Shown here piece after piece: positions 3,594 to 64,000 of a stretch of 64,000 bases of DNA (its first letter is position 1; every line of letters begins with the position of its first letter). A program made the position numbers and the translations under genes. The notes beneath the pieces were generated by a model. The model did no database searches and was not told where the DNA came from. It was given only the letters and a program-made list of their open reading frames with translations. Source of the stretch: Squalus acanthias (Eukaryota); contig CM059432.1 of NCBI GenBank assembly GCA_030390025.1, forward strand, positions 43,402,001 through 43,466,000, read 5' to 3'.

Positions 3594-3772
3594 ACTTACC
3601 TTCACTGAATTCCTGTGACTTGTGGACTATATTAAATGTGCTGCATATTCTTGGCATGCGTGCATTTTACTCCCAAGCTGTGGTTCCTAGTTTACCCACA
3701 GTACATGACTGCGATCCATACCTATACTCACATAACTCTTCAATTATTTTTGATCAGTAATGTCTCAATGAC

Positions 3773-5960: not shown

Positions 5961-6918
5961 AATTAAAAATTCAAAAATTTTCCTGCACACATTTTAGGAA
6001 ATCAATTCCCTTTTCTTCATTTACCCCCTCACTGTCCTAATCAGTGAGTGGCTAATTGGCTAATTATTGTTGGAGATTTATCAAAAATCAAAATAAAACT
6101 TTTTAAAACTTTTTCTCTGTCTCTTTTATCTCCTCTCTCTCTTAATCCCACCTTTCTTTCCCTTTCTTTATTTTGCCTTCTGTATATGATTTGGCATTGA
6201 ATTAACTATTCTAACTTACACTTCCTGGTTTAGCCTCTGCTGCCTAGAAATTCATCTCAGGCAGTGGCACAAGACCGAAGGATCGGCCACTCGTTTTGCT
6301 TCACTGCCCAAGATGAATTTCTAGGCCTGCATGTCTCAGTCAGGATTCTTCAGTCTGATTGGTTGAGGAGACACACTGTTGCTTGCCCAGTTCACACAGG
6401 TCCCAGATCCCCTGTAGAGGGCACCACACTGTTTTGACTCTCCAATAACTGCAAGTTGCAGTGCAAAAGCCCACAGAAATTCGGTAGGCAAATGTAAGTG
6501 TAAAGAACAATGAACGCTGTTCATTCGCCGCTGACCACAAAATACAGCCGAAATGTTTATTTTCCAGTCCAGCCAGTTTGCAGCCAAATTTCTGTTAATG
6601 CCATTAAATCTATGGCCTCGGAATTCATTTAGGCCGTTTTTCAGGTACCAAATTGATGCAGGGAATGATCTCTGCACCCAAAAATAGAGGCTCAAGGATC
6701 GCAGGAAATTGGTCCTTGGGACTCATGTAAATAATTGTGGTGAACTGCCGGCACCTGTTGCACCTCCACAGGCAGCTCGCCTGACTGAATAAATGAATTT
6801 CGGGCTGCCTGCCTCACTTGCTGGAGAGGGTAATTTGCTCTAGCCTGGCCTTCTGCATTTTCCCTTACCTGTGGATAGTCACCATTTCTTCCTTTACCAT
6901 TGCTAGCTCCCTATCTCG

Positions 6919-17717: not shown

Positions 17718-17901
17718 GGGATAGAAATTTGTCTTGGGCGGCAGTGCAAAACGAGCGGTATCACTTTGGCCGCCCGTTAAATGCCCTGCTCGATATTCAG
17801 TTCTTTGAAATCAATGGAACTGAATACCGGGCAGGGAGTATAATGGCAGCCTATATGATACCGTCCATTTTGCACTAACCCCCAAGACAAATTTCTACCC
17901 C
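17718..17901. mobile_element. Palindromic MITE, PIF/Harbinger-like
   Basis: TIRs GGGATAGAAATTTGTCTTGGG / CCCAAGACAAATTTCTACCCC; body largely self-complementary; flanked by TAT/TAT. Confidence 0.8.
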
Positions 17902-43100: not shown

Positions 43101-45073
43101 AGTGAAGGCTGGAAAACGACTGAGTATCATTGGCAAGCTTGTTAGGTCCCAAATATGAATTTAGTCATGGCCTTTTGAAAATACCAAAACTGTAAGTTGA
43201 CATTAAGAATAAAATCTAGTGGATAAAGAAGTGACAAATAGTGAGAGACCCATTTATTTTTTGTGTTTCATGATCCTAATCTTCTGAAAAAGCTGTGGTA
43301 GCAAGAACATTGAAACATTTTGGAAGAAGTAAATCTCTGGATAGATATTGGTACTGTGATCTTATGTGCTTTAATAAAGTTAATGTGGATTTTTTAAAAA
43401 GCATTTCAGTTAAAATTGCATTAAAATTAGCCTAATGTCCAGGCCTGTGTGTTACTGATTTATATATTTGTGCCAATTGCCCTATTTTTAAAATTTGCTT
43501 GGCTTCCAATAATGTGGTGAAGTGTGTGACCAATGAATTGCTGGATTAAACAGAAATCAAATAACGTTTCACAGTAATTATACAATGCATAGACAAAGTC
43601 CTATTAATTTTAATTAGCTATGAGCTGTTCTACAAGACAGAAAGAGGCACTATATTACACACAAACTATTTATGTTTAGTCACAGTTCAAGCATTCCAAA
43701 TATCCTAAAATGTAGGTATGTGTTATATGTACGTGGTGACGGATATTATCGATAAGAAGTAACATTGTAAATAAAATATATAGTACAATAGGCCCTAATC
43801 ATAGCCTCAGACTTTACGGACCCATTTAAAGCCAGGACCTTGGCTGGCCTCCATTCTTTTCACAATTGGATTCCATCTATCCAGCAACATTCTTGTTAGA
43901 CCAAAATAAAATGACTGCTTTACTTCTGGATCTGAGGAAAGCCTAGATTATGGCAAGATGGAAAAAGACTGCATGGGAAGAAAGTAACTGAAACATGGGG
44001 GACGATTCGTGAAGGAAAAAGTGAAATCTATCATTGCACTGGGGAAGGAAAAGAAAATGTAGGAAGTAGGCACTGTGTGTTACAAAAACTTCTGGGACTT
44101 GTCCTGATTAAAATCTTAACTCCATCCTTTTAAATGTTTCTGCAGAGACGAGAACTCAAAAAGTTGAAAAAGCTTTTTTTGTGAACTATTTGAAATTGAT
44201 AGGTTTCTATAAACATATGAAAATTGAAATATGATATTCAGTTTACAAGCTTGGTGGACAGGAAAACAGTGCGGTACATTGAGACTGTTTGATGGAAATA
44301 GTGTGCAAGAATTAATTATGGCTTATTGTTAAAGTAGCTCAGGAATAAATGAGACACCTATTCATCTGCAATAAATTTCTGATATACTAATACAGTACTT
44401 TGTAGGCTGTCAGAATCAACCTCACAGTCCAGTATTTGTTTTCAATTTTTATTATAGAATATATTTGGAACCGCCTTTGCATGTTATACTAACATGATGT
44501 TGAAACTATTATGCTTTACCTGCTCCCTTTTTAATGTTCATGAGCCGTGAGTTTCCAGACTGCTGCTTATACAGTTAGTTAACACATGGCACCCTCTGTG
44601 CCAAAACAAAAGAAAACAGGCGGGCATTAGGTGTTGCCTCAGAGATATTGTGTATTTGGTTCACATTATGCCAGTGTCTTACCTGTACATTAGGTTTTTC
44701 TATCAAGTTTGTCTTTAGGGGCTTTATTACATTCCCTTTTCTCTTCATCTTTGTTTTTGGTAATATTTGAGTACTGAACTAGAAGACAATGTCGAAATGG
44801 AATTGGGCTCGTGCTTGGTGCTAAGGAAGCATCTGTACGTCTTTGAGCCAAGAACAAAATGACAATCTCTCCACATTACTAATGAGGTGACACCATCTGG
44901 AACATGCCTCCTTACAATTGTTTTGATCAGGGAATGATTAAAAGATGAAATGACTGTTTTTGGCCACTAAAATTACCTTTTTGGAATGGTATGATGGTAT
45001 TTAACAGTTCCTTGAGCAACTGATGCCCAGAGGAAGAAAAGAATAACACCAATTCCTCTTTTGCCTCTGACAG

Positions 45074-45211
45074 ATCGCACTGAGAAGCGCTCCACGATGC
45101 CAGACTCACCTGCAGATGTAAAAACACAATCCAGGTTGACGCCTCCAACAATGCCACCTCCTCCAACCAACCAAGGAGCACCTCGAACTAGCTCATTCAC
45201 ACCAACAACAT
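45074..45211 (+). CDS. RUNX1T1: RUNX1T1 internal coding exon (138 nt)
   Basis: Pyrimidine tract + CAG acceptor; (D/H)[45 protein letters not shown]; donor T|GTAATT. Near-identical to mammalian ETO and unlike CBFA2T2/3. Confidence 0.96.
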
Positions 45212-46001
45212 GTAATTAGAAATATTGTATTTTAAATTCTGTTTCTACTTGTTTATCTATTTTAGTCTTTATCATTGCTATTCTCTTTTTGCTTTGCATA
45301 AAATTACAGAAAGTATTTTACCGTGGTGGGGAGGAAGAGAAGGTAAGCGAGAAACTGCCTGGTGGTATTACAGTGTAGATCATATGAGTACACAAGGTGT
45401 AAGCTGCAGAGAGAGTGCTGTACTATTAAGTTAACTGGCATCTCTGGGGCTTCCTATATAATGATACTATTAAGTTAGTCTGAAAAGCTAAAACTCTTTG
45501 AATTAACTTCTGTTGCGGTTTAGGGGTTGAATTTATTTATTTATTTTAATCCCTGTAATGCCTTAACCCTGACGGTCTCACTGGAGCTCTTCTGGCAGGT
45601 GCTTCGATAAATATAACCTCCGTACTTGGCCTAGTATTGGGACTGTACACCTGTTTTACTTTAGACTGACAATGCTATTTTCAGATGTTTCCATGCTGTA
45701 TGTGTCCTCCCCAGCAAATGCAAAGTAGAATTCAGCCTGGCCGTATTCAGTGCTGTGTAGCATATGTAAGAAGTAGAATTCTTCTTCTGGAACTTTTTGC
45801 TGTACGCTTAACTAAGACATGCTACACAGCACACAGTTGTTGCTGGCCTGTTTGACGTATGGTGGAAGAAATTTTCACTGTCATTGTTTGCAAGGTTATT
45901 GCTTTTAAAGCATGCTCTCTTTGTATCTGTTATTAATGAGTGGAGCGGTCTATTCTCAACAGACACAAGCCTAATATTTATTTTTATTCCTCCTGTTACA
46001 G

Positions 46002-46243
46002 TAACAAATGGCAGCAGTCACTCGCCCACTGCATTGAATGGGGCACCGTCTCCTCCAAATGGCTTCAGTAATGGAACCTCCTCTTCTTCCTCCTCTTCAC
46101 TGGCAAATCAGCAGCTGCCACCAGCCTGTGGTGCTCGACAGCTCAGCAAGCTGAAGAGATTTCTAACGACCTTGCAACAATTCGGCAATGACATTTCACC
46201 GGAAATTGGGGAGAGAGTGCGAACCTTGGTGCTTGGGTTAGTG
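46002..46243 (+). CDS. RUNX1T1: RUNX1T1 internal coding exon (242 nt), start of TAFH/NHR1 domain
   Basis: TTACAG acceptor; [81 protein letters not shown]; donor GTG|GTAAGT; phases consistent with neighbours. Confidence 0.97.
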
Positions 46244-46702
46244 GTAAGTAGGGAATACAAAACTGTTTCAAGTTCTTTGCCACACACCTCATAGTATATC
46301 GATGTATGTTTGTGCGTAAAAAGTCAGTTCTCCAGTTACTGCACTTGTACTGGCATCTCTCAAAGCTGCCCCAGTATTTTTGATCAAATTGTGCGATTCA
46401 GGATCATTCCTGTACCAAAGACACAGGGCTTTAACTCTCCAGCTCAGTGTCAAAATGGTTACAGTGGAGGGGAGAATGCTTACCTCCTGCTGTAAGTGAC
46501 ATTGGATTGCATACACCACAAGCTAAGTTGTTTTATTTATAGAGAACACTGCAGTGATCAGATTGAGAGACTAAAAATCAAATGGTCTAAAACTTTGTCC
46601 ATTTTGAATATTATTACTTCAGGCAAATAGCAATATGGAGTAACTGGTCACAGGTGTGTGACTGTGATTTTCTTTATTCCCCTCCTCTTTCCTGAAGATA
46701 GT

Positions 46703-46824
46703 GGGGGTGAAATTGATAGCGCAAAATGGGTGCTAGCAAATCAGCAGCCCGCTTTGCACGCAGACGGAAAATAAAAATTTGACTGGGTTCACTATTGGCC
46801 ATTTTCAAGACCACTTTCACCCCC
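46703..46824. mobile_element. Short MITE, PIF/Harbinger-like
   Basis: GGGGGTGAAATTG / CACTTTCACCCCC termini flanked by AGT/AGT; internal GCGCAAAATGGG..GCAGCCCG resembles the 17718 MITE. Confidence 0.6.
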
Positions 46825-47014
46825 AGTGACTCATGCTTGTATATATTTGCATAGCCATTAGTAGCTTTCCAGTACTACAACCAACTGGTCATTCCTCACA
46901 TTCGATAGTGAGTGTTGTGCTATTTGGCTGTGGCAGCCATCAGAAATCAGCCTGATGCTATCTTCTCCTGACATTCACACAAGAACGTTTCCAGTAGTGA
47001 TCATCAGCTAGTGC

Positions 47015-47347
47015 TCAGTAGAGTAAATAGGAGAAACTGTTTCCACTGGCAGGAGGGTCGGTAACCCGAGGACACAGATTTAAGGTCATTGGCAAAAGAA
47101 CCAGAGGGGAGGCGAAGAGAATTTTCTTTTAAGCAGCGAGTTGTTATGATCTGGATTGCACTGCATGAAAGGGTGGTGGAAACAGATTGACTAGTAACTT
47201 TCAAAAGGGAATTGGATATATAATTAGATAAGGAAAGATTTGCGAGGCTATAGGGAAAGAGCAGAGTAATGGGACTAAATGGATAATTCTTTCGAAGAGC
47301 AGGCACAATGGGCCGAATGGCCGCCTTCTGTGCTGTATGATTTTATA
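47015..47347 (+). mobile_element. CR1 LINE 3' fragment
   Basis: AAACTGTTTCCACTGGCAGGAGGGTCGGTAACC..GGACACAGATTTAAGGT..GCAGCGAGTTGTT..ATGGGCCGAATGGCCGCCTTCTGTGCTGTATGAT. Confidence 0.85.
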
Positions 47348-48287
47348 ATCATTTGCAGGAACTCTAGGTGACTGACTGACTAATTTTCACTCGCCTTAGT
47401 CTGGGGACATGGAAGCTAATGTCGTTCCCCCCTCTGCTGCTCCATTTGTGATTAGTTAACTTGCTGCAGACTAGGGCACATTGTGCATTATGCCCTGAGA
47501 CAGCGGGACAACTTTAGTGATTTCTTTTTGGAAGGAGGTGTTATAAAGAATGGTGTCTCATAGCTGTAACATGTACCTACTAGACTAACTTATTTGATAA
47601 ACTAACTGCATTAGAATGTAATGTTGTTAGCTGGTTCAGTATCTTATTCTGAAGTTAGTGGAGTGGAATGGAATGATTCTATCAAACTTGCAATATGCTG
47701 AGTGGGTAAATGCTTCAGGTCATACGTTACGGAGCCATACATGCCAAAAGATGTGAACTCTGCCTGGTGCTGAATTAGTTGATGTCAGCTCAGACAGCAA
47801 TGGAGGCACTTCAGTTGGCGGAATTCCTGATGTAGAGAAGGGAAATATGAGTCAGAATACCCACTTCTGATGCACGTGCTGAAAATCTGTGTGCAGATTC
47901 TGGTGATAGATCAGTCTCTTCTGTGATGCCCCACTGCTGAATAGCCTGCTCTTGCTATTCAGGCTCACACATGATGGATAATCAATTTGGTTCAGTTATT
48001 GGAGGGCTTATGGAACTGTACCCCAGCATAAGTCAGTATCTTCAGGAAAAGAGGGTAAGGAGAGATATTTGGAGAAGAAAAGCAACTTTTGATGCACTTA
48101 ACTAGTGTGTGCTTATTGAGGCGAAAGCTCATGAGAATTCATAGCTGTGAAAGTCTTTTGTGCTCTTGATGGCCATTGTCCAGAGAGAAGAATTGGCTTG
48201 TATTTACTTCATGTTTCAAGCTTAGGTTGTCTAAACTGTTGCCCACATGTCTCGTGTACCCTGGTCACTCAACCAGCTGTAGGCTGT

Positions 48288-48674
48288 TTTTTTTAAAAAT
48301 TCATTCACGGGATGTGGACGTCGCCGGCAAGGCCAGCATTTATTGCCCATTCATAATTGCCCTTGAGAAGGTGGTGGTGAGCTGCCTTTTTGAATACAAC
48401 TGAGTGGCTTGCTAGGCCATTTCAGAGGGAAGTTTAGAGTCAGCCACATTGCTGTGGGTCTGGAGTCACATATAGGCCAGACCGGGTAAGGATGGCAGAT
48501 TTCCTTCCAAAGGACATTAGTGAACCAGATGGGTTTTTAACGACAATCCGGTAGTTTCATGGTCACCTTTTTATTTAATTAATTGAATTTAAATTTGATT
48601 TGAACTCATGTCTCCAGATCATTAGTTCAGGCCTCTGGATTACTAGTCCAGTAACATAACCACTATGCTACCGT
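48288..48674 (-). mobile_element. tRNA-derived SINE (second family); tail shared with the LINE at 60860-62450
   Basis: Minus-strand head CGGTAGCATAGTGGTTATG (A box)..GAGTTCAAATC (B box); tail GGCAAGGCCAGCATTTATTGCCCATTCATAATTGCCCTTG matches ~60889-60927. Confidence 0.75.
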
Positions 48675-48984
48675 AACATTCCCAGTGCCTGCTCCATTTC
48701 AAGTTTAGGTTATATTTCTTGTATCATTACAATAAGTCCTAAAAACACCAATGAGGGAGCAATTCTAAGAATGGATATTTCCAGAGTAGGAATTGCTTAT
48801 GCTGCTGGACTCATTTATTTGAAATATAATGTGAAATTATTATGGAACAGCAAATTCAAACAGTTAATTTGTAATTTAACTGGGATGGGGAGATGCTGTT
48901 ATGTGTCTTTAATTGCACAAAATTAATCTACAAAAGTAGCAGACTGGTTTAGTTTAATTTTAGCAGTTTTAGTGAGTGACACAG

Positions 48985-50184
48985 CAACAACAACAACTTG
49001 CATTTATATAGCGCCTTTAATGTAATAAAACGTTCACAGGAGCATTCTCAAACAAAATTTGACACCGAACCACATAAGGAGAAATTAGGGCAGATAACCA
49101 AAAAATTGGTCAAAGAAATAGGTTTTAAGGAACATCTTAAAGGAAGAAAGAGATTGAGATGCGGAGAGGTTTAAGGAGGGAATTCCAGAGCTTAGGAGTG
49201 GCAACTGAAGGCATGGCCACCAATGGTTGAGCAATAAAAATCAGGGATGCTCAAGAGACCAGAATTAGAGGAGCACAGATATCTCAGGATGGAGGGGCGG
49301 GCATGGTGGTGCTGGGGCTGGAGGAGATTACAGAGATAGGGAGGGGTGAGGCTATGGAGGGATTTCAAAATCAAGGCGTTGCTTAACCGGGAGCCAATGT
49401 AGGTCAGCGAGCACAGGGGTGATGAGTGAACGGGACTTCGGCGAGTTAGATCACGGGCAGCTGAGTTTTCAGTGACCTCAAGTTTACTTAGGGTAGAACG
49501 TGGGAGGCCAGCCAGAAGTGCGTTGGAATGGTCAAGTCTAGAGGTAGCAAAGGCATGAATGAGGTTTTCAGCAGCAGATGAGCTGAGGCAGGGGCGGAGA
49601 CGGGCAATGTTACGGTGGTGGAAATAGGCGGTCTTAGTTATGCTGTGGATGTGTGGTCGGAAGCTCATTTCAGGGTCAAATATGACACCAAGGTTGCGAA
49701 CAGTTTGGTTCAGCCTCAGACAGATGCTAGGGAACGGAGTTTGTGGTGGGGACCGAAGTCAATGGCTTCAGTCTTCCCAATATTTAATTGTTGGACAAGC
49801 AGTCTGATCATTTAGAAACCGTGGAGGGATTGAGAGACGTGGAGGTGAGGTAGAGCTGGGTGTCCTCAGCGTACGATGTGGAAACTGAGGCTGTGTTTTC
49901 GGATGATGTCGCCGAGGGGCAGCATATTGATGAGAAATAGGAGGGGGCCAAGGATAGATCCTTGGGGGACACCAGAGGTAACAATGTGGGAGTGGAAAGA
50001 GAAGCCTTTGCAGGTGATTCTCTTGCTACAATTAGATAGATAAGAATGGAACCAAGCAAGTGCAGTACCACCCAGCTGGACGACGGTGGAGAGGCGTTGG
50101 AGAAGGATGGAGTGGTCAACCGTGTCAAAGGCTGCAGACAGGATGAGGAGGGATAGTTTATGTTTGTCACAGTCACATAGGATG
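48985..50184 (-). mobile_element. L2 LINE 3' part (RT to tail)
   Basis: ORFs 49192-49668(-) and 49808-50176(-) parallel the L2 at 2205-3480 (YAEDTQLY); (CAA)n tail at 48985. Confidence 0.9.
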
Positions 50185-50835
50185 CAGCGTTAACTTGAGT
50201 ATTCCTTGAATGGTATTTATATGATAATTATTCACCAAGGGGCTAGCTGATAAGAGACTGAGTGATCCACTAATAAAAAGTTTAGGCACGGTAGGATAGA
50301 TTTTCTTATTCTGTTTCCCCCCTCACTTGCATCCCATCAGGATTTCTTGGGTGTTCCCCAAAGTTCGTGACTGGGTTTGTGCATGGTGTAATGGAGTGGG
50401 TGTTCCCAGCCTCCCACTTCAGTTTCTATTTGACATCTGCTAAAATCTGTGGTAAAGGCCTGCCTGTTCGCTTTCTCCGTCCCTCCCCCCAGGATAGTCT
50501 AAAAGCCTCAGGATGTTGCTCCCTGGCAGCAGTTCAGAAGGACTCGCTGACAGGAGTTCTTCTGTGCTCTGATTTCCTCCCAGATGTTTGGATGAGCTTG
50601 CACTTGTAGTACACCTGGGCTGGAAAATGTGTGCACTTGCAATTTCATAGGTGCAGCCCACCTGAGGTGATCTGAGGCTGTCGGGTGCCCAGCTAGTGCC
50701 CAGAGAGGAAAATCGACTCTTGTAAGCCTCACAAAAAGGGTGCAGTGTAGCATGGTCTGAATTAAATGTAAGCATTTGGGCTCTGCTGGCCTTCCACAAC
50801 ATAAGATCATGAATTCTTTACTTGGAGAATCCATT

Positions 50836-51021
50836 CACTAAAACAGATTATCTGGTCATTATCACACTGCTGTTTGTGGGAGCTTGCTGTGTGCAAATTG
50901 GCTGCCATGCTTCCTACATTACAACAGTGACTACACTTCAAAAGTACTTAATTGACTGTAAAGCACTTTGGGACGTCCGGTGGTCGTGAAAGGCGCTATA
51001 TAAATGCAAGTCTGTCTTTTT
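50836..51021 (+). mobile_element. Deu-type SINE, 3' half
   Basis: Near-identical to 18198-18377. Confidence 0.85.
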
Positions 51022-54000
51022 TCAATTACTGGTTGGATGTTAACTTAACATGCCTTATGGTTGTTTTTCTTCATGGATAGAAATAGAGTATGTAGGAAAA
51101 TTACAGCATTTTAGCCAATATCTGAAAGACTGAGGTTAAGATTTTGATGCCTTCCATCAGAACCCTTATCATGGCACTGCAATTTGAGGAATTCTTTTTA
51201 AAGAAAATTACATTTTATTGTTTTTCCTTTTATGAGGGGTTAGGGGAAGGAAACAAGCAAACTTGTTCTGTGGTGTCTATCAGTGTTGCCCTATAACTGG
51301 GGTGATGCATCCTTCAGTTTAACCCGCTCTTTATGAACAGGCAGCATGCTCCCTCTTGAGGCTTTACCCTGAATTATTTGCCCAGAATTTCCTCTGAGCC
51401 ACTCCTGCTCCGCCGCCATAACTTCACCGGAATCTCTGCCTAAATCCCGTTCACTGCCGGCCGTCTGGCGAAGTTATGGCCGTGGAGCGAGAGCAGATAA
51501 AAATGTAGCATTTGAGATTTGAGGGAGGATGAGTGTTTTGGACTTTATTGGCAAGGAAACGGGAGAATGTTAATTTCAGAAGTCCTAACGTGTGGATATT
51601 TGTTAAGTCTCAAAGATGATCCAAGCAATATGAGTCGGTGTTCAAGGCTCATTAAGCTGCAAGGGAGCATAACTGCAACCTGTACTAGTTTATCAAGAAG
51701 TAAAGACTCTTGCTTGCCAAGTGAGTAGCAGGAATTTGATGTAGACTCACTATCAAAATAAGAAAGGAACATGGGTGTATTCTCCACTTGAAAACTAGGT
51801 GTACAGAATAAAAATACAAAACTTCAATGGTTTGGTTATAAATGCACCACATTGTATGGTTACAGCACTAAGTCATATAGAGATCCAGGAAGGTTCTGAT
51901 ACAATCCATGAGCTGATGTAGCTGATTTCTGTAGTGGAGGGGGCCATAGCAATTGGCATCAGTGACCCCAAGTTAAAGAGAGGAAAACTTGCCAGATTTC
52001 TTGCTCCTAATCATTACCCATTGACCCCTGCTCAGTTTATGCACATACAGATGTCAGGTGAGGACATAATTGAGCTCTGGTATGATGGGCCTCACAATTG
52101 AATAGTCCGTCAACAATCACTGTCCAGGTTGTTGTGTAAGGAATAGCTACTTGGGTAAGGTACCAACAACAATGGAAAAGATGAATAAGGGGGAAATGAA
52201 AGCAGAGGGAAACGTGTAAGACAAGGAAAAAAAGAGGATTAAATCAATATTCAATGATTAAACCACCAAACATCGTGAGCATGCCCAGGGTTGGATTCTA
52301 GCACTTTTTAATATAAGGCCATATTATTTCAGAAGTAGACTTCAAATGATCTAATTTCTGCCACTTTAGTTTTGCAATTTACTTCAGTGCTTATTCCTAG
52401 TACCACATGCTCCTCTCACCTCACGTACCGCAATGGTGATCCAGTGACACCTGAGGTCAAGTGGAGTGTCAAACTTGTCAGCGAGCTGTGACAGTTCATG
52501 CTGGATGTTGCATTGTAACAAAAACTGGGTCAGTCTGTTTCAATTGGTGGATTTTTTTTGCTCATGGTATCTTGCTCTTCTTACATGCTTTAGGTGTCGA
52601 GATTTAATCGTCAGGGTCATGTATATGCTACGGTATGCTATCCACACAGTGCCATTTCCCATCATTCGACATTGTAACTCCTTACTCATACAGCCATTTT
52701 GATTTTGGTTTCCCAGATTAATCCTCTTTCTTTGATCATTACGCAGTGAAATAATTTTGCTCATGGGCGATGCACTTCATGTCACTTAGCTGTGCAGTAA
52801 ATATTACTATTCCTTGCCATTTACTCTACGTATTGTAATGTTTGTATTACTAATGAGCATCTTGATATATCCGCTGAGGTGTCCCAAATGTTTACTGAGC
52901 AAAGTATAGTCTATGTAAATGCAAACTATTGTAGAGTTTTGCTGGGAATGGGAATATTTTGCAAACTTAATTGCACAGCTAAATGAGCCCAGTTTTTCCA
53001 TCTGGCAGGAATGTTCTCCACGCATAGTAATGTCTGCAATTGTGCTATGGAACTTGAATAAACAAATGTGTGGTGAGATTGCTCTTGCTAAGATGGCCCT
53101 GGAGTTTTATAGGGGTTGGTGGCAGGGTAATTAGAAACACACTTTTCCTCATCTGTAGTATATCTTTAACTGTTAGAAAGCCATTGAACCCTTTGAAACG
53201 TTCTCTGCTGTTTTTTTCCCAGTTTGCCGCAACCGCCTTCTAGCATTGGGAATGTGTGTTTTTTTTCTTGTTTCTTTGGAAACCAGAACTTATAAGGAAA
53301 CATGGCTACTATATTGGCATAGGATCATATATTTCTTATTGGTAGACAGTGTGCGGGTTTAATAATGAATAGTTCTTTTAAAAATTAATCTGTCACCACA
53401 GAACAGAAATTATTTTATTTACACTTTCTAATGGCTCCATCAGCTTAAGTAAAAGGAGGTGCATTATAATTTTCACGACATGAAAGATGCATTTGGTTCT
53501 AAAATAAAATATAATACTAGGTATTCTATTGTCTAGCCTCCAGAGAGTGTCACGGTGTGCACAAGAGGTTATGTTCCAAATCTAGTGTCTGAGCCTGCTG
53601 TTTGTATCAGCTGTTTGTTAGATTAACTTTTTTTCTTATTTTGATAATTTTGTTTCTTTGTAATTTTTAATTTTGCTGCAATATCAAAATGTTTATGTGA
53701 AATAAGTGTATTTGAGACTATACGGCCATCTTCTTAGCAGCAGGACCTCAGGAACAGAAAACAAACTGAATTCAGTAGCGACTGTGACAGTATTTATGCA
53801 GGTTTCCATAAAGTATCGTTCGTTTGAAGTGAATAAATAATACAGCATCCACCTACTAGGGAAATACATTTGTTAATTTATTTTCAATTGGAAAAACTTG
53901 AAGTATAAAATAAACTTCTGCAACTTTTTTTTAGGTTTATAAATTATTACAGAAAATCTGTGTAAAAGCTAAAATAATTGCCCATTCGTAACAATACATA

Positions 54001-54795
54001 GATGGATGATGTCAATAAATTCATTGAACTTCGAAATTTAAATTCATTTTCATCTTCAAAAAAAGTTGATTTAAAAAGAAATCTGTGTTTCAAATGATCT
54101 TCAACTGCTTTATTATTTAGATTTTCACTTTTTAAATAAAATTTTGGGCCTAATGTTGCAGGACAATAAGTATAATTATGCACACTTAAAGTGTTTGCCT
54201 GAAATTGCTCTCTGCGATTTTAAGAGGTTTTAAGCCACTTATTTTAAACCGGTTAACACTGTGCTAAAATAGTGGAGAGAGGAATTTCAAACAAACCTGT
54301 TGAGCATTCATATGCTATAGTATTCTACAACATAATTTCAGAGCTATAATTTCTGTAATACAGCCCATTTCCCTTTTTTAAAGAAAAAAACAATCAGCAC
54401 AGCCAGAAGCAGGAAATTGTTTGTCAGTGGTTGAAGGGTTAAGCTGTAAAGACAGTGAACATACTGGTGAATTCAAACCCTCAAATACATCTGTATTTTA
54501 GAGTCACCCCAGGCAGTATATATGGCATCAAGCAATGGAACTTATTATAAGAGAAGCTTTTGTTCATGGATATTTCTAGTAAAGAAGTGAAAATGTGAGT
54601 ACAAAGAACACATGGCCTCAATGTCCACAACTGCTTTTAGTACTGGCTTCAATATGTGTTGAAAGGTCCTCACTCAATATTTTATTTAAATTTGAATATT
54701 TATTAGTAATAGAATGCAGAAATGTGTTTTGTTTAGCTTTGTGAATGTGAAAAGAAAATACTTTCACTTTTTAAAAAAAATAAATTATTTTGCAG

Positions 54796-54885
54796 AATTC
54801 TACCTTGACAATTGAAGAATTTCATTCCAAACTTCAAGAAGCTACGAATTTCCCTCTCCGACCTTTTGTTATACCGTTTCTAAAG
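54796..54885 (+). CDS. RUNX1T1: RUNX1T1 internal coding exon (90 nt), TAFH/NHR1 domain
   Basis: TTTTGCAG acceptor; [30 protein letters not shown]; donor AAG|GTATTT; phase 0/0. Confidence 0.97.
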
Positions 54886-56659
54886 GTATTTGCAACATTT
54901 CCCATTTATCTTCTAACCATTTGAAAACCTGTCCCTACTGAATTAACTGTGCAATTGGTATCGACAATTCTGTAACTGGTATTTTAAGGGTTAAAACCTG
55001 CTGTTACTGAAATATTAGAATAGTACTTGCATTTATATAATGCCTTAATGACTTACTTTTCAGAGTTCAGTGAAGGATTTGTTGGCGAACCTGAAAGTTA
55101 TGTTTAATAAAGGAAAAGAACATCAGTGTAGGGTTCCAGTGTATTCTAATAGTCCATAATTCATGTCTGACTCTATAGCTTCTGTTACTATTTCTAAATC
55201 CGTGAAATAATTTCCTTTGGACTGTCAGATCAAATGCATGTTTTCCGCTAAGGATTTCAAATCTATTCCCACCTCCTCCTTCAAAAGAGTGCAGGAAATT
55301 GGATGTATATTTTTTTCCCCTTGCTATTGCTCCTAAATTGTACCATCGGAAGTTGGGGGCACACCCTCCCATCATAGAACCCCAAGGATCAGCTGGAGAT
55401 CCCTCACACTAAACCGCCAGCAACTACTGACCTAACGCTACAGAGTGGCTGCAGGAATAGGCAGGCGCATACCAACAAATGACTGACAGATTTTAAATAA
55501 TAAATGAAAACTACTTTTGAAATGGCTTCAGTCACCAAGGCCCGGCCTGTTCGAAGTATACTTCTGTATGTGCTTGTTTTCTTGCGTGAACTGCCATTCC
55601 TTTCCAAGAACTGGCACGTGAAATCAAGATGGACTATCTGGGATTTGTCTGTGCCACAGTCCAACATTCTAAAATATGAGCATCATTTTGAAAGCTTAAG
55701 GGTGTTTTTTTTTAAAATATATTTTTAATAAAAAGCACATAATTGTTGCTTGCTTTTGGCCAAGCAACTACAAGCGCTATGTTTGCATTGCATCATGCAA
55801 ATGCCATTTCCTTTGTGAATATTACTGACTTTTTCATCGTGGAAACCGCTCCCTTTAGGGTCAGGTTGGCGGTGAAAAAAGCCAAAAAAGCATACAAGGA
55901 CACTTCCAGAATCTTCCCTCACTGCTGTACGCCATATGGTTACCATATCATTTCATAGGGGATCACTGGAATCAAAGATGCAACTTTTTCTAATTTTAGT
56001 GCCTTTCCTCAAAGGAGACATTAATGACAAAAACCATATGGTTGTGGGAACGTGGACCTTAATAACTGCATTCAATCCCAGCTGTAACAATATGCATTAA
56101 AGTCTTGTTTTCATTAGGCTAATGTAAGCCACAGACTCTTGATTCTATTTCATGTTACGGGGAATCATTTACAGGAAAGATATTAGACACCATTATAATT
56201 ACTTTCTCTGGTACTGGGATTCCACCCTCCCCCACTACTTTGTGTTGTCACTTCCTTAGTTTGGTGAAGCATTTAAATTGAAATTAACTCTTTGGGTACT
56301 GAAATTCAATGGAAATTTGAACATTTAAAAAAATATCATCTGCAAAAATGATTTTCCTCTGAATTTCAGATATTGCATCTGATAAATGTATCGGATTCAC
56401 AGTATTGCTTCTTTCAAGGCAGCTGTTAATTTTGATATACCACTACTAAACTTCAATAAAGCTCCATAGTCTTTTCTGCAGAATAACTCTTACAGTATCA
56501 GTAAATGCATTTGTGCAAAACCTGGCAAAGTTTCTGTTTGAAAAGTAGGATAAGGGTTCAAATGTAGAGTACATGAATGTATTCCTTATTTTGTGTGGGG
56601 CACCTACAGATTTCATATGTGCTGCTGAATCTGGCTCACCAAGACCGTGTACTACTTTA

Positions 56660-57274
56660 ACATCCTATTTGATCCACCCCACTGGGCTTCAAATCCCATA
56701 GCATTTCCATTACTAAGACTGCTTGCATTTGCAATATTGGCCACTGCCGCCCAAACCTTTTTGTTACCTCAAGATTTTATTTCTCAATTTCCTTCTCGTT
56801 CGCTTCCCAACCTATACCCTTGATGAGCTCCTACTTGTCGAAAACACCGATGCTCACGTCATGTTTTACACTAGGTCCTGCTTGTCCATCACCTTTGTAC
56901 TCACTGACCTACAGTGACTCCCATCCTAATCTAAAAATTCCTCCACAGCCTCGCACCATCCTACCTCCTCCAGTTTTATGCCCCTCTTGCACTCACTGGT
57001 CCTCCAACTCTAGCCTTCTGCGTTTATACCATTCCTTCAGCTCCACCATTGGTGGCAGAACCTTCCACTGTCTCAGCCCAGCTCTCTGGAACTCCCCCTC
57101 CATCTCACTGCTGCTTCTCTCCATGTTTAAGATCCTCTTTAAAACTCTCTGCTCTGACCAAGCCTTTAGTCACCTAACTTCCCAACAATGGTTCAGCATC
57201 CATTTATTTCTATCTTGTGAAATGCCTGGGATTTTTCAACATTAAAAGTGCTTTGTAAATGCAAATTGTTGTTG
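56660..57274 (+). mobile_element. Degraded L2 3' fragment
   Basis: STIGGRTFHCLSPALWNS..DQAFSHL in ORF 56820-57245; tail AAAAGTGCTTTGTAAATGCAAATTGTTGTTG. Confidence 0.75.
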
Positions 57275-57311
57275 AAAAATAAAATTGCAAAACAATAGAG
57301 AAATGTTTTAC

Positions 57312-57716
57312 AAAGAAAAGACTTGCATTTATATAGCACCTTTCATGACCTCAGGACGTCCTAAAGCACTTTACACCCAATGAAGTACTTTTGGAGTGTA
57401 CTCACTGTTGCAATGTAGGAAATGTGGCAACCAATTATCGCACAGCAAGGTCCCACAACCAGCAATGTGATAATGACCAGATAATCTGCTTAGTGATGTT
57501 GGTTGAGGGATAAATATTATCAAAATAGTGCCATAGGATATTTTACATCCACCTCGACAGGACCTCAGTTTACCAACACATCTAACAATGCAAGGCTCCC
57601 CAGTACGTCACTGGAGTGTTAGCCTAGATTTTGTGCTCAAGTCTTTGGAGTAAGACTTGAACCCACAATTTTCTGACTCTGAAGTGAAAGTGCTACCACT
57701 GAGGAATGGCTGATAC
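57312..57716 (-). mobile_element. Deu-type SINE
   Basis: Reverse complement of the 17914 family, from the GACTTGCATTTATATAGC tail to the TTGAACCCACA..GTGCTACCACTGAG head. Confidence 0.82.
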
Positions 57717-57826
57717 TGTAAATACCAGCTGACACGGTTTTAATAAATTAGACCAGAAAAGTGAGTTTTCTGGGAGCTCTCTTTCTTCCACCACCTACTT
57801 TCTGGATAACTAGGATTAAAGACCTT

Positions 57827-58721
57827 GGGGTAGAAATTAGGTCGCGCCCCATTTGGGGCGCAAATATCGTCCGGACGCAAATATTAGCGCCTGGCGCTAA
57901 TTATCGGCACTGACAGGAAACTTCACTTTTACCGCCCCGGGAGGTGAGTGGAGCGCTAAAGCAGGCGCTGCACACCTCTCTTAAGGCGCAAAGGCCGAGC
58001 AGTGAGGCGCTAACTCGGAGCGCTGGCGAAGCTCATGTAATGTCAGTCAGCAATGGAACACACACACAATGGCACGGGCCAGTTCTTAAAGGGGATGGTT
58101 AATCTTGCTTTCCATCCACATCCTGTTCATTGCTGCCTTGAATCTCGGCCTGGAGAGACTTGCACATCAAATGTGCTGGAAAGAACAATGGAAAGTACCA
58201 GGCAAAGAGCTCAGAGTGCAGCTCCCACAGTCTCTGCTAAATCGATACAAGGAATGGCAAATCAAAATGAACCTGCAAAGTGCTGCTCAGTACCCAAAAC
58301 TCCTTCACACAACGTTGAATCTCTCCAGAAGTCTCTCCCTCTCTCTCTCTCAGAATGCGTAGTTCAAAAATGCCACCAACAATAAAAGACAGGAAGAGGC
58401 CCCCTTTAAATAGCGCCCCCCCCAGCCCCACAGCGATTGATAGCGTTCCAGTCTTCTGGTCGTTGGAAGCGCCAGGCGGTAAGGCAGGGGGCGCCACTCA
58501 ATTTCCGCTACGGGGCGCCACAAGGGCGTTGCACCATGGAATGACGTCACAATCTGCGCGCGCAGGTGGTCGCAGCAGTAAGTTTTAGCGCCGCCGCACA
58601 ATCTCAAGTTAAGTTCTCGAGCGGCGCAAACATCGCTGCGCCCGGGCGTTCGCGGCTTTGCGCCCCATTAGCGCCCTCTTAAGGCGCTAACGGGAGGCGC
58701 AACCAAGTGAATTTTTACCCC
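57827..58721. mobile_element. Non-autonomous PIF/Harbinger-like DNA transposon (895 bp)
   Basis: TIRs GGGGTAGAAATT / AATTTTTACCCC; CTT/CTT 3-bp TSD; CpG-rich subterminal regions with repeated (TTA)GCGCC/GGCGC(TAA) motifs. Confidence 0.8.
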
Positions 58722-59889
58722 CTTGTTTTTAAAAAAAAAACTGCTTTATTGGGTTTTCAAGAATTTTACATTTACAAGCTATCAAGTTATTAGTTATGTA
58801 CATAGATGTACATTTATTTTCTGAAGCATTTGTAAAATGAGGTGCTTTGGGTAGAATACAGGAATCTGTACCAATTAAGCTGGCATCCCATCAGCGGGTC
58901 AAGGGGGGGGAACGGGTGCAATAGCTGATGGTAGATTCCCAAACCTAGTTTAATTGCCAGCTTCAATAGATATTAAAACATGCTTGGTTTTTGTTGGGTT
59001 TGTTTGCCTAGACCTCCAGATAAGGAAGAGATAGCCATCTCTGGATGATGAGACCAGGGCAAGTCTTAATGTGTAATGTACATCTCCTGTTGGTCAATTA
59101 TAATACTGTGGGCTGGAATGGAGAATTAGCCACTCCACCTACTTGGCTGAAGAAGGCAGAGTGACGGTTGTGTAGCCCTATGGAATGGGAAGAATGTTTT
59201 TAAAAGTTTGAATTGATTCAAAAAAAATAGAATGTGAGAACAGCACAATAATGACTTGAATTTCTAGGTTACTGCTTGAAATCTACCAGTGAATAATGAT
59301 TGTTTGCTATTGGCTTAGATACTTTATAAACTTATCTGTGTGCAAGAGGTTCAACACATGAACCATTCTTTTTATTAATTTTGAACAGCTTTCCTTTCAG
59401 AAGTTTTATTAATTTTTCAAAGTTTTTTTGTGTATGATGTTTCCAGGAAGTCAAAGTTGAGCCATGTCTTTGGAGTAGCATGGATTTTTTTTTTCCTGTA
59501 GAAAAATATCCTTTTTTTTTATTTGGAGGCAAGACAATATCATTAGCATGCATTCCAAAATTATGACACTGCTACACCTGAGCATTTTCCTTTTTTTCCA
59601 TTTGTTGCCTATTTTCTTCCCTTCCCCATCCCCTGAAATTGTTGCTTTTTTCTGGGGTATAATTACTTTGGCAGCGCTGCCCAAATAGCCATTAATTATG
59701 TGAGCTTAGACAGGGAATTCTAGAAAACTCTTTTGACCACAGAGCATTGCAGACTAGCCCAATCTTGTTCTTGCCCATATACTTCCATCTGGCCCCTTGA
59801 TTAGCAATCACGAATCCTGGTGATTTTCCATCTCCCTAATCCAGGGGTGCTGAGCACTTCTGCAATTGCTTTGGTTCCAATCAGTTCAC

Positions 59890-60365
59890 AAGTTAATTAC
59901 AGGTTTGGAAAGCCATTCAGCCAATCTTAGTCCATCCATCTAGGAAAATCCTGAATTCTGAATCCAAGTCAATGATCTAAATTTGAACCAGTGGTCCCAC
60001 CACCAATCCCTGGGGCACACCACTTAATTCTTACCTCCCCACCCTGACCTAACTCCTCCACTATGTATGTTATTTTCGATCCTTCAGCCAACTTCTTCTC
60101 CATTCCCAAGCTTTCACCCTGGATTTTGGAACTTGTGTAATCATCTTTATTAACTGTCTTTTGGAATTCTATATATATTACATCACAGGACTTGCCACAG
60201 TCCACTTGGCTTGTCATTCCTCAACAAAGTTGAGCATATTGGTCAGACAGGACCCTTGTTGAATCTATTTTGACTGCTGTTTACTGTTGTTGTTATTATT
60301 ATACATATAATCCTCAAGTTTACTCCTGGTAATTGATTCAATTATTTTGCCAGGCGGTGATATAA
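59890..60365 (-). mobile_element. Very degraded, internally deleted CR1
   Basis: ORF 59969-60217(-) VDCGKSCDVIYIEFQK resembles VDxGxxVDVxYxDFQK; reverse GVPQG remnant CCCTGGGGCACACCACT. Confidence 0.55.
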
Positions 60366-60371
60366 GACTAT

Positions 60372-60788
60372 AAAAAGAAAGACTTGCATTTATATAGCGC
60401 CTTTCACAACCTCAGGATGTCCTAAAGCGCTTTACAGCCAATGAAGTGTAGTCACTTTTGTAATGTAGGAAATGCAGCAACCAATTGCGCGCAGCAAGCT
60501 CCCACAAACAGCAATATGATAATGCCCAGATAATCTGTTTTTGTTATGTTGATTGAAGGATAAATATTGGCCGGGACACCGGGTGTAACCCCCCTGCTCT
60601 TCTTCGAAATAGTGCCATGGGATCTTTTGCCGTCTCATCCGAAAGATGCACCCAACAGTGCAGCACTCCTCTCAGCACTGCACTGGAGTGTCAGCCTAGA
60701 TTTATGTGCTCAAGTTTCTGGAGTGGGACTTGAACCCACAACCTTCTGACTCAGAGGCGAGAGTGCTACCCACTGAGCCATGGCTGAT
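60372..60788 (-). mobile_element. Deu-type SINE, nearly full length
   Basis: Reverse complement of the 17914 family with A/B boxes (TGGCTCAGTGGG, GGTTCAAGTCC) and tail. Confidence 0.87.
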
Positions 60789-60859
60789 ATGTAGTTGCCT
60801 GTGTCTGTGTTGTTGCCCTTTTTGAATATGAACACTGTTAGCCTGTTTCCAACTTTTAA

Positions 60860-62450
60860 AAATTTGTTCTTTGGATGTTGGTGACCCTGGCAAGGCAGCA
60901 TTTATTGCTCATCCATAATTACCCTTGCAATCCTTGTGGTGATGTGCTCCCACAATGGTGTTAGATAGGTAATTCCAGGGTATTGACCTCGCAATGAAGA
61001 AGAAATGGTGGGATATGTTCAGGTCAGGATTATATGTGACTTGGAAGTGATGTTCCTTGGCCATTACTGCTCTTATTCTACTTGGTGGTAGAGCTCACGA
61101 GGCTGGATGGTACTGTTAGAGTAAGCTTGGTGAGTTGCTGCAGTACATTGTGTAGATAGTACACACTGCATCCAAAGTGTGTTGGTGGTGGAGGGAGTGG
61201 GTATTGAGTTCAATGGCAAGGTTGTTGATCAAGTGGCTAACTCTGTCCCGAATGATGTTGAAGTTTTTGAATATTGTTGTGGCTGCACCCATCCAGGTGA
61301 GTGGTGAGTATTCCGTCATATTCCTGAATTGAGCCTTGTAGATGGTGGATAGGCTTTGAGGTGTCAGAAGGTGATCCATTCATCAGCGTATCCAACCATT
61401 ACTCTGCTGTTTTAGGCAGGGTGTTAATTTGGCTGGGCAGTCCAGTTATAGTTCTAGTCAATGATGAGCCCGAGGATGTTGGTGGTGAGCAACTCGATGA
61501 TGGTACTGTTGAAGATCAGTGAGGTGGTTGGGCCATTTCTTGTTGGCTATCATTGCCAGGCACTTGCGTAGTGCCAGTGTTACTTGCCACATGTCAGCCC
61601 AAGTCTAGGTGTTGTCCATGCCCTGCTGTAGGCTTGCAAGGGCTGCTTCATTATCTGAGGGGTTGTGGATGGAGCTGAACGCTAGAATCATCAGTAAACG
61701 GCTATACTCTTGACCTTATGACAAAGGGAAGGTCATTGATGAAGCAGCTGAAGATAATTGAGCCAAGAGCATTGCCCTGAGGAACTCTAGCAGTAATATT
61801 CTAGGGCTACGGTGATTACCGTGACCATCTTCCTGTGTGTCAGGTATGACTCCAGCTACGGAGGGTGTTTCTCTGACCTCTCCTTGCATTTAGCTCTTGT
61901 GCCCATGCCTGTATAAAGGCTACGATGAGGTCTGGTACCCAATTGTTGTAGTGGAACCCAAGTTAAACATTAAACATGATGATCTAGAAATTCGTCTCGG
62001 GCAGTGGCGCAAAACGGACGGTATCGAATCGGTCGCCCGATGTAGCAGCGCCTGATACTCCAGTTCCATTGCAGTCACTGGTACTGAATATCGGGCGCTG
62101 TGTATAACGGGCAGGCCCAAGACACATTTCTAGGCTGATGTGTCTAGGAATGTTGATGGAGGAGTCTGGGATGTTGGCTAATAGAAATAACTGAGTGCAG
62201 CTATGTCAGTCTGTTGCAGGACTAATTTTTGAGACAGTTCTTGCAATCTGGGCACCAATCATCAGTTGTTGTTGAGAATTTTGCAGGGTCACCTGGGCTG
62301 GAATTACTTGACTCTGATCCGATGCCTGGTCACTGCCAAAAGGACAATCCAATATTTCTCATTGTTCTGTTTTATATTGGTTGTTTTCGAACTGTGGCTT
62401 GTTAGGCCACCTCAGAGAGCATTAAGAGTCAACCACAATTTGTCAGACTC
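60860..62450 (-). mobile_element. Degraded CR1-group LINE (distinct family), RT region to 3' end
   Basis: ORF 61116-61379(-) LLTPQSLSTIYKAQFRNMTEYSPLTWM; remnants of VPQG..LG (GAGCCAAGAGCATTGCCCTGAGGAAC), SCFINDL and WQVT. Confidence 0.7.
61981..62135. mobile_element. MITE related to 17718-17901, nested in the LINE
   Basis: CTAGAAATTCGTCTCGGGC..GCAAAACGGACGGTATC..CCCAAGACACATTTCTAG; central CAGTTCCATTG/CACTGGTACTG palindrome as in the 17718 copy. Confidence 0.72.
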
Positions 62451-62970
62451 TTGCCTCCATATATATATATATATATACATATAAATATATATATACTTGT
62501 TTTGTGCTTTTTTTTGTTTGTCTAGGACTAACAAGTCATTACTGAACTCAGTATTGACTTGTTAGTTCTAGACAGGAATAATTAAAAAAAAAATCTAAGT
62601 GGATCTTTAATTTATTACAAACTACCAAGGATCACACTATCTTCCTTTTGCATGGTAAATCTTTGATTTTGTATATTTCAAATAAACTTGTGCTGAGCTA
62701 GTTAGCTCCATAATAATGGACTGATCAGCATTGAAATGTATGATACTTGTGTCTCCTGTTTGCTAATCAGATTGGTGCTGCATACAGCTTCCTACCAGTG
62801 CCGTCGCCATGACAACCACCTTGGTTGTTCCAGGTCTGGTAGAACACTTGCTTTCGTGCTGCATATTACTACTGGGGCAACACTGCGTCTTTTCATGTGC
62901 ATATGGCTGCAGAGCTCCAGTGTGGAATTGCAGCCAAATGCAATCTATGCTTTACAACATGATGCTACAG

Positions 62971-63045
62971 CAGTGGTGGGCAAAATACAGCCCATGGGCC
63001 ATATCTGGTCCACCAAGTCATTCTATCCAGCCCACTGGACGGGAC
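62971..63045. mobile_element. hAT (Charlie-like) transposon terminus
   Basis: CAGTGGTGGGCAAAATACAGCCCATGGGCCATATCTGGTCCACC resembles a CpG-decayed Charlie-type end (CAG..GTGGGCAAA...CGGCCCGCGGGCC..ATCCGGCCC); preceded by TGCTACAG. The partner end is not clearly seen. Confidence 0.55.
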
Positions 63046-63289
63046 AGAAATAGAACGCAAGCCGGAGCTCGAGCTACACATTAGTCACTTCCACTTCTCA
63101 TGGGTCAGAGACGGACCCGAACTGTAGCCAGGAAACACACCGTAATAATTCAATTTATCAATTCGCAAAAGCGATTCTCCCCAGCCTGATCTTCAAGGGA
63201 TCCGTTCCGCTTCTGGGCCCCAATGGCAGATGTCCATACCCTGAATGCACTGCGTACTCGAACATACCCTATCATTTTAGAGTCGCGTC

Positions 63290-63430
63290 ATGGCTGCTCA
63301 TCTCCATCTCTCCTTTATCAAAGAGACTGGCACTGTATCTTTCCTCTCCCTGTACTCCGAGTATGAAGGCAGGGGGGTTCTCATCGCCGTCTTAGACACT
63401 GGAGTGGATCCCGGAGCTCAAGAACTCCAG
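63290..63430 (+). pseudogene. TPP2: Tripeptidyl-peptidase II first-exon fragment (S8 catalytic Asp motif)
   Basis: [37 protein letters not shown] vs recalled human [37 protein letters not shown]; similarity stops at CAG|ATAATG with no GT donor. Confidence 0.85.
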
Positions 63431-63680
63431 ATAATGGCACGCGATTATAGATACTGCGCATGCCTCACTGCTTATAGAGCAGCGTGTTTAGTCTGCCACC
63501 AGTTTTGTGGTCAATATTGTTTCTGTCATAATGGAGGGCTCTTCATTTCAACCTTGCTGTTGCAGGGGAACCATGATGTGGGCTTATTTCTGCTCACTGG
63601 GTCAGTGTTTATGCTAATTGGAACTTCTGTTGCGTCTGGACTGTGCTGAGGCTGATAAAGGGTTTTGCACACTGTATCAC

Positions 63681-64000
63681 TTAGAATCATAGAATGGTTA
63701 CAGCACAGAAGAAGGCCATTCGGCCCTTCGAGCCCGTGCCAACTCTATGCAAGAGCACTTCAGCTAGTCCCACTCCCCGGCCCTTTCCCCATAGCCCTGC
63801 AATTTTTTTCCTTCAGGTACTTATCCAATTTGCTTTTGAAAGCCACGATTGAGTCTGCCTCCATCACCCTTGCATTCCAGATCCTAACACTTGCTGTGTA
63901 AAAAAGCTTTTCCTCATGTCGCCTTTGGTTCTTTTGCCAGTCACCTTAAATCTGTGTCCTCTGGTTTTCGACCCTTCCGCCAATAGGAACAGTTTCTCTC
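63681..64000 (-). mobile_element. CR1 LINE 3' end (continues beyond window)
   Basis: TAGAATCATAGAATGGTTACAGCACAGAAGAAGGCCATTCGGCCC tail; ACCTTAAATCTGTGTCCTCTGG body. Confidence 0.88.

Follow-up and report, generated by a model that had tools for sequence, protein, structure and literature searches.

The repeat that starts at position 62971 of the window (the whole 64-kb stretch of DNA analysed) is very probably a decayed member of a multicopy Pack-hAT family that carries exon 1 of TPP2 together with its start codon and donor site. The element is likely a non-autonomous hAT transposon of the Charlie/Buster type into which the 5' end of the host's TPP2 was taken up as DNA. Capture of TPP2 exon 1 by a hAT element at the DNA level had been proposed in a preliminary description of this region, and the proposal is upheld by the presence of many copies, by the end of the captured piece at an exon boundary, by a GT donor in other copies and by a hAT-type left end.

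Table 1. Features of the TPP2-carrying element and its surroundings (window coordinates).
Feature	Positions	Strand	Basis
Last RUNX1T1-like exon found upstream, TAFH positions 34-65, phase-0 donor	54796..54885	+	profile match
Likely left target-site copy TGCTACAG	62963..62970	+	retains the central TA and agrees with NTCTAGAN at 4 of the 6 specified positions; target motif given in PMC3014272 (table 1) and PMC2836564
Left end of non-autonomous hAT-type element, begins CAGTG	62971..63086	+	depth step; 29/36/28 contigs (X4/X7/X13) with unrelated flanks
CpG-rich promoter-like module, o/e 0.86, missing from one sub-family	63087..63279	+	joint 63086->63280 in all four runs
ZNF143/Staf binding-site motif, 1 mismatch	63237..63254	+	consensus from the available part of PMC5006282
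Last bases of TPP2 5' UTR, likely	63280..63289	+	tblastn of P0002 reaches 63281; weak
TPP2 exon 1, coding part from ATG to last codon, with catalytic Asp motif; 7 codons missing near 63317-63320	63290..63430	+	protein searches
TPP2 intron-1 donor, which is AT in this copy and GT in the majority of others, with about 20 bases after it	63431..63450	+	variant table; a sub-family diverges after 63450
Internal multi-copy segment	63451..63679		depth 80-380 in three DNA-type runs
LINE inserted into the element, conceals right end	63680..64000	-	72% identity with two further copies inside the window

The public contigs of four of 22 runs (X4 and X11 from organism A, X7 from organism C, X13 from organism D) were aligned to 62600-63690 at 80% likeness. 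The aligned contigs, 675 in X4, 17 in X11, 702 in X7 and 408 in X13, are mostly less than 95% alike; the account below draws on 40 of 395 variants, 12 of 48 indels, 15 of 65 joints, 24 of 481 loose ends and 32 of 1895 pieces. X11 is taken as an RNA run by guess only, and its 17 contigs carry no information on expression. The whole of 62971-63679 is a dispersed repeat in contigs from the three organisms. The summed contig depth of X4, which is not equal to copy number, is 10.8-13.4 over 62600-62932, 672 at 62970-63006 and 88-3665 over 62970-63672; X7 and X13 repeat this profile, with an abrupt rise at 62971, where about 11 gives way to hundreds. In X4, X7 and X13 alike, 28-36 contigs reach 62971 from unrelated flanks, indicating several insertion sites, as in a multicopy Pack-TIR, and the single exon position 63400 is covered by 59, 61 and 46 variant-bearing contigs per run. 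From these depths the family is estimated at tens to low hundreds of copies, perhaps hundreds, and it is present at dozens of distinct sites in each of three related animals, which are likely sharks.

These tens of variant-bearing contigs on single exon positions, barring contig artefacts, and the joining of the modules in diverged contigs oppose the view that a gap-filling duplication, single-copy as is common for animal Pack-TIRs, entered an old hAT relic, and likewise a chance juxtaposition. Even though only 1.4% of surveyed animal Pack-TIRs are multicopy (available part of PMC8277862) and no second copy of the element is present elsewhere in the 64-kb window, this explanation is extremely improbable.

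The linkage of the hAT end to the exon is seen in overlapping diverged records. In X7 they tile 62974-63412 (records 25 and 26, 62974/62979-63207/63210; record 27, 63071-63355; record 28, 63146-63412) and in X13 they tile 63052-63679 (record 10, 63052-63302; record 11, 63167-63492; record 12, 63211-63679). Record 1 of X11 spans 62972-63086 at the same depth as the X11 joint to 63280, and likely joins the terminus and the start codon within one contig. None of the records listed spans the whole element, and part of the left-end contigs may come from relatives without TPP2. Dispersed copies sharing the hAT end and the TPP2 piece, which the preliminary description had proposed to look for, were thus found in the aligned contigs. 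The joints 63086->63280 (in all four runs), 62998->63369, 62993->63283 and 63207->63462 define deletion sub-families, which are usual for non-autonomous elements. Record 9 of X13 includes unique flank and extends into the element, differing by 20 substitutions and 7 gap letters over 476 bases; as it carries the flank-element junction, the insertion predates the divergence of organisms A and D. Contigs of X7 do not cover the unique flank and are uninformative on the presence of the element at this site.

Two further features of the contigs were recorded. The depth in bins 63044-63080 and 63377-63450 is about ten times that of the rest of the element, and these peaks may be short, more abundant derivatives or just similar copies collapsed in the contig graph. 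Behind 63323, two X13 contigs with a loose end go on in a GC-rich line unlike the window, which may be another sub-family or a further capture.

The left terminus, CAGTGGTGGGCAAA by sequence inspection, starts with CAGTG exactly at the boundary of the repeat family. CAGTG fits YARNG, the terminal motif of Charlie-related hATs, whose published target is NTCTAGAN (available parts of PMC3014272 and PMC2836564). Contigs with loose letters ahead of 62971 number 29 in X4, 36 in X7 (with 13 more at 62969) and 28 in X13. The agreement of the left-flank consensus is only 0.43-0.46 in X4, X7 and X13, so the flanks differ among copies; its end is nevertheless TCTAGAC in all three DNA-type runs, the hAT/Charlie target signature. 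The target preference is therefore seen in the flank consensus of the family, and the 62971 copy itself, preceded by TGCTACAG, keeps only part of it (Table 1). The terminus had been called hAT/Charlie-like in the preliminary description, and the CAGTG start, the sharp boundary and the flanks ending in TCTAGAC agree with that reading. The assignment to hAT, which is likely, rests on one end and the target preference. Searches of the non-TPP2 segments in 12 frames against Pfam gave no transposase domain, Rfam gave no match, and the left-end hairpin is insignificant (z -1.58).

Another vehicle, such as a Helitron, a one-ended or composite repeat or a segmental duplication, could have carried the hAT end as a passenger. 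The right end and the target-site duplication are not seen in the window, the depth varies along the repeat (88-3665 in X4), and bat Helitrons are known to amplify 5' gene fragments to thousands of copies (available part of PMC4224331). A passenger end, however, would share one flank among copies, whereas here the hAT target consensus stands at the end of diverse flanks in three runs and the repeat boundary coincides with the CAGTG terminus to the base. Helitrons lack a hAT-type terminus and have a short TA-type target (available part of PMC3014272), so the hAT target signature and the CAGTG start at the repeat boundary argue against membership in this group. We regard another vehicle as improbable and retain the hAT element as the carrier.

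The window was also scanned for further ends. The terminus gave 10 matches at <=3 mismatches against 7.2 expected, and a site with one mismatch at 16100 was discarded as it lies inside a LINE ORF; no TCTAGANCAG site is present in the window. A metagenome scan with the 18-base terminus returned 22 loci, none alike beyond 26 bases and none with TPP2. Loci L004, L007, L009-L013 and L018 are AT-rich and share the 18-base terminus only; some of them may be hAT-like ends from other animals.

The reading frame opened by the ATG at 63290 matches Drosophila TPP2 (3LXU) with an E-value of 3.1e-6 and horn shark TPP2 in a pairwise comparison with 2e-19, and HMMER found 321 proteins at E<=1e-3 among 1.84 billion representatives. 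The match is therefore far above chance, and the ATG does open the TPP2 N-terminus with the catalytic Asp motif, as had been claimed. A word-indexed protein search missed this 48-residue piece, which HMMER recovered; the follow-up used the best 150 of the 321 HMMER matches. The exon part of the best match, P0002, is 100% identical to thorny skate TPP2. Over the 37-residue core, the four best among the 119 anchored rows of the named search are from cartilaginous fish, and these four are also the only ones of the 119 with the exon end AQGLQ. In comparison with TPP2 of horn shark, catshark, white shark and basking shark, 31 of the 37 core residues and six of the first nine are kept, with a 7-residue internal gap between the two blocks. 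The N-terminus is thus shorter, as the preliminary description held, by an internal gap and not by truncation. Most other copies encode Gly at 63422-63424; together with AQGLQ, this shark-type signature points to host origin of the exon, and the element thus contains internal host-gene sequence, as Pack-TIRs do. The true TPP2 locus that was to be sought is represented at the protein level only, by intact shark TPP2 with the same N-terminus.

Shark TPP2 residues are recovered with the majority letters of other copies at 63308-9, 63336, 63356/8 and 63423, and also with the X13 loose end before 63373; most of the differences of the 62971 copy are thus due to its own decay. All nine listed records that cover 63316-63320 have no more than 5 bases there beyond those of the window, and hence lack 17-21 exon bases as well; five contigs in three runs retain four extra bases after 63319. 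This shared deletion argues for one founder, with the caveat that the aligner could split a record holding the missing bases.

The captured exon ends with CAG/ATAATG at 63430/63431, the conserved position of TPP2 intron 1. Anchors are present in 139 of the 150 listed matches (11 have none); 120 of the 139 leave TPP2 right after the same Gln, 112 of them with Val, the reading of GT, and 19 enter exon 2. Many of the HMMER matches evidently come from short gene calls in which exon 1 is translated on into the intron; the 120 include at least three of another kind, namely two unrelated repeat proteins and one diverged full-length TPP2. At 63431 the four runs have G in 27, 3, 31 and 32 contigs, amounting to 63-100% of depth, and with this letter a GT donor is recovered. 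The loss of similarity at the exon-1 boundary and the suspicion that ATAATG is a mutated donor, both put forward earlier, are upheld by these counts.

Beyond 63450, the sequence of 13 X13 contigs and one X11 contig departs from that of the window. The diverging line, read by hand, lies within four bases of the back-translation of nine residues of the P0002 intron read-through, one base off the expected place, and random 30-mers equalled this match in 26 of 40,000 trials. The likeness is suggestive of homology between the sub-family sequence after 63450 and TPP2 intron 1. The first bases after the donor gave no match to the P0002 intron (112 of 400 shuffles were as good), and the other exon flanks are at chance level against the upstream and intron read-through of skate-type TPP2 (17/150, 32/150 and 125/150 shuffles as good), P0002 being distant.

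A truncated processed pseudogene of TPP2 would be expected to run on into exon 2. The first base past the exon can be read as the Val that opens exon 2 in shark TPP2, yet none of the seven following residues matches exon 2, no A-run >=5 occurs within 62971-63680, and the 5'-most exon is the only one present. The promoter-type motif upstream and the loose end after 63450, which points to a donor and intron sequence, also speak against a retrocopy, and we give this origin hardly any credence. Copying at the DNA level, as in Pack-TIRs, is indicated by the end at the exon boundary, the GT donor in most copies and the lack of exon 2 and poly-A, the last two having been noticed already in the preliminary description. 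None of the outcomes which it named as fatal was encountered: exon 2 does not follow, the piece is multi-copy, and the end carries the hAT target signature.

The sequence between the left end and the start codon resembles a promoter. The CpG o/e ratio is 0.86 in 63087-63279 against 0.25 in the flank 63451-63679, so the earlier claim of CpG-containing promoter-like DNA on both sides of the exon is retained for the former and dropped for the latter. The words CCGTTCCGCTTCTGGG and TGCGCATGCC are located at 63202-63217 and 63455-63464, respectively. The ZNF143/Staf motif stands 36 bases before the ATG and is the sole match at <=1 mismatch in 64 kb, with 0.29 expected; 25 of 100 shuffles held one such match somewhere in the window. 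The test was post hoc, the motif having been first spotted by eye, and a motif is not equivalent to activity. The mismatch site, 63242, is A in 35, 1, 36 and 23 contigs, which makes the motif complete in other copies. In each of three runs 2-13 contigs have a 2-base insertion at the ETS-like core near 63210, and this core may be peculiar to the 62971 copy.

The module 63087-63279 could be either the TPP2 promoter or a second captured promoter; it has no match in Pfam, PDB or the atlas, nor with the upstream read-through of skate-type TPP2. Tentatively, the 193-base module may also be an insertion into the TPP2 5' UTR and not TPP2 DNA. A calpain-7 look-alike (E 0.81) was rejected, as the likeness is reduced in other copies by changes at 63133 and 63141 and by indels at 63143-63145. 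Eight codons at 63052-63075 are within three bases of the upstream read-through of skate-type TPP2, a weak likeness equalled by 17 of 150 shuffles; in the sub-family joining 63086 to 63280 these codons would sit near the ATG.

On the right side, the internal segment 63451-63679 is followed by a minus-strand LINE, which we take to be CR1-like. The segment has no match in Pfam, PDB, the protein database or the atlas, the protein-database blank being weak because the same word-indexed search missed the TPP2 piece. The earlier suggestion that the segments flanking the exon are further captured pieces is thus a conjecture. A 3' transduction by this LINE, which adjoins the segment with its 3' tail facing the element at 63682, would fit the geometry. 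Five listed diverged records, however, end exactly at 63679, and four of them have 50-161 further letters that are unlike 63680-63690. The LINE thus interrupted the 62971 copy and was not its vehicle; as the far end is moreover sharp and has the target signature of a DNA transposon, transduction is very improbable.

Of the two ends expected for a Pack-TIR, the left alone is visible in the window. The LINE interrupts the element and the window ends at 64000; up to that point the best matches to the left end were equalled by 82 and 147 of 300 shuffles, and no 8-mer within one mismatch of the left target site was found in 62971-64000. Two look-alikes were rejected. The terminal-repeat candidate at 63579-63599 (5-7 of 300 shuffles) is internal, with diverged copies bridging to 63679, and diverged copies likewise run to 63679 through TTTTGCACACTG at 63663-63674.

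The element is located in a gene with two TAFH/NHR1 exons on the + strand, near 46140-46246 and 54796-54885. The exons are identical at 38 of 38 residues to the ETO chain in PDB 2KNH, a match that separates the host gene from CBFA2T2 only; from the exon translations, we take it to be RUNX1T1 rather than the paralogue CBFA2T3. TAFH profile positions 66-90 were not found in 44001-64000, and the element therefore lies in an intron, in sense, which agrees with the placement inside a RUNX1T1 intron given earlier as far as the flanking RUNX1T1-like TAFH evidence goes. The upstream RUNX1T1-like exon and the TPP2 exon share a phase-0 end, so a copy with an intact donor at this place would provide an alternative first exon, in frame provided that the host's next exon follows in the normal way. 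Since its donor has changed from GT to AT and its promoter motif has lost one base, the 62971 copy is most likely inert, and splicing into RUNX1T1 is predicted to be unlikely. These losses are compatible with selection and with drift.

Other repeats and CpG-rich DNA were noted in the window. A CpG-rich region at 58400-58999 (o/e about 1.05, GC up to 0.63) is situated in the same host intron. A 56-base near-perfect palindrome (89%) at 62519-62574, with T- and A-rich arms (62500-62593), is possibly a small MITE or a hairpin relic. Three related short inverted-repeat elements starting with (C)TAGAAATT, about 70-85% alike, at 61984-62133, 17722-17897 and 6244-6326, form a separate MITE-like family.

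We propose that the TPP2 fragment would have been captured through a template switch while an element was being repaired or replicated, and that one founder copy would then have been amplified, likely by transposase supplied in trans. The spread would have been followed by neutral decay, and a matching right terminus would lie beyond the LINE.

Fragments captured by plant Pack-MULEs are biased towards GC-rich 5' gene sequences. Pack-MULEs resemble the TPP2 family in that a short 5' gene fragment is captured and often amplified, and differ in belonging to the Mutator superfamily of plants, with long terminal repeats (available part of PMC8277862). In animals, the survey of 100 genomes by Tan et al. 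(2021) lists 370 Pack-TIRs, 208 of them hAT and four multicopy, including Pack-hAT-N8_XT of Xenopus tropicalis with three copies of a 5' UTR (available part of PMC8277862). The TPP2 family is similar in that host 5' gene sequence is carried by a non-autonomous hAT with repeated transposition. In contrast to Pack-hAT-N8_XT as described in the available part of that source, it contains a coding first exon with start codon and donor, has tens to perhaps hundreds of copies, is old (most contigs are less than 95% alike) and is common to three organisms. By term search of the survey, the elephant shark, with 0 Pack-TIRs, was the sole cartilaginous fish found, and TPP2 is absent from the text and supplements so searched (PMC8277862); such a family would likely be missed by the survey filters given in its available part (90% identity, unique top hit).

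Helitrons of vespertilionid bats likewise carry promoters, 5' UTRs and first exons or introns at high copy number in a vertebrate (Thomas et al. 2014; available part of PMC4224331). They are rolling-circle elements without terminal inverted repeats, unlike the TPP2 element with its hAT-type end and target preference. The Charlie-related hAT-HT1N1_AC of Anolis shares the CAGTG start (YARNG) and the target consensus NTCTAGAN; its terminal repeat differs after the first bases, and no host exon is described for it in the available part of PMC3014272. Our literature search found nothing on a TPP2-carrying transposon or a shark Pack-TIR, and the family may already have a consensus in a repeat library (Repbase, Dfam). 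The capture process is already known; what is new is that a cut-and-paste element has such a copy number and age and contains a coding first exon and a promoter motif. For a vertebrate, this is likely an unusually high-copy gene capture.

We speculate that the family could serve as a natural portable gene-start cassette, in which a ZNF143/Staf-type site, a start codon and a phase-0 donor are offered together at tens to hundreds of loci in sharks. From sense introns, copies with an intact donor would then start in-frame chimeric transcripts, and some may have been co-opted as alternative promoters; we consider this rather unlikely. According to the available part of the survey (PMC8277862), animal cut-and-paste transposons almost never amplify captured host DNA (four multicopy cases, 1.4%), and the TPP2 family is a counter-example that such pipelines would likely mask as an ordinary repeat. 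The many TPP2-like fragments can mislead annotation and read mapping. Slowly evolving shark genomes offer a place to measure the frequency of capture and promoter-favoured amplification or reuse. If the family is as described and other shark cases exist, cartilaginous fish would be a vertebrate lineage with plant-like, high-copy Pack transposons.
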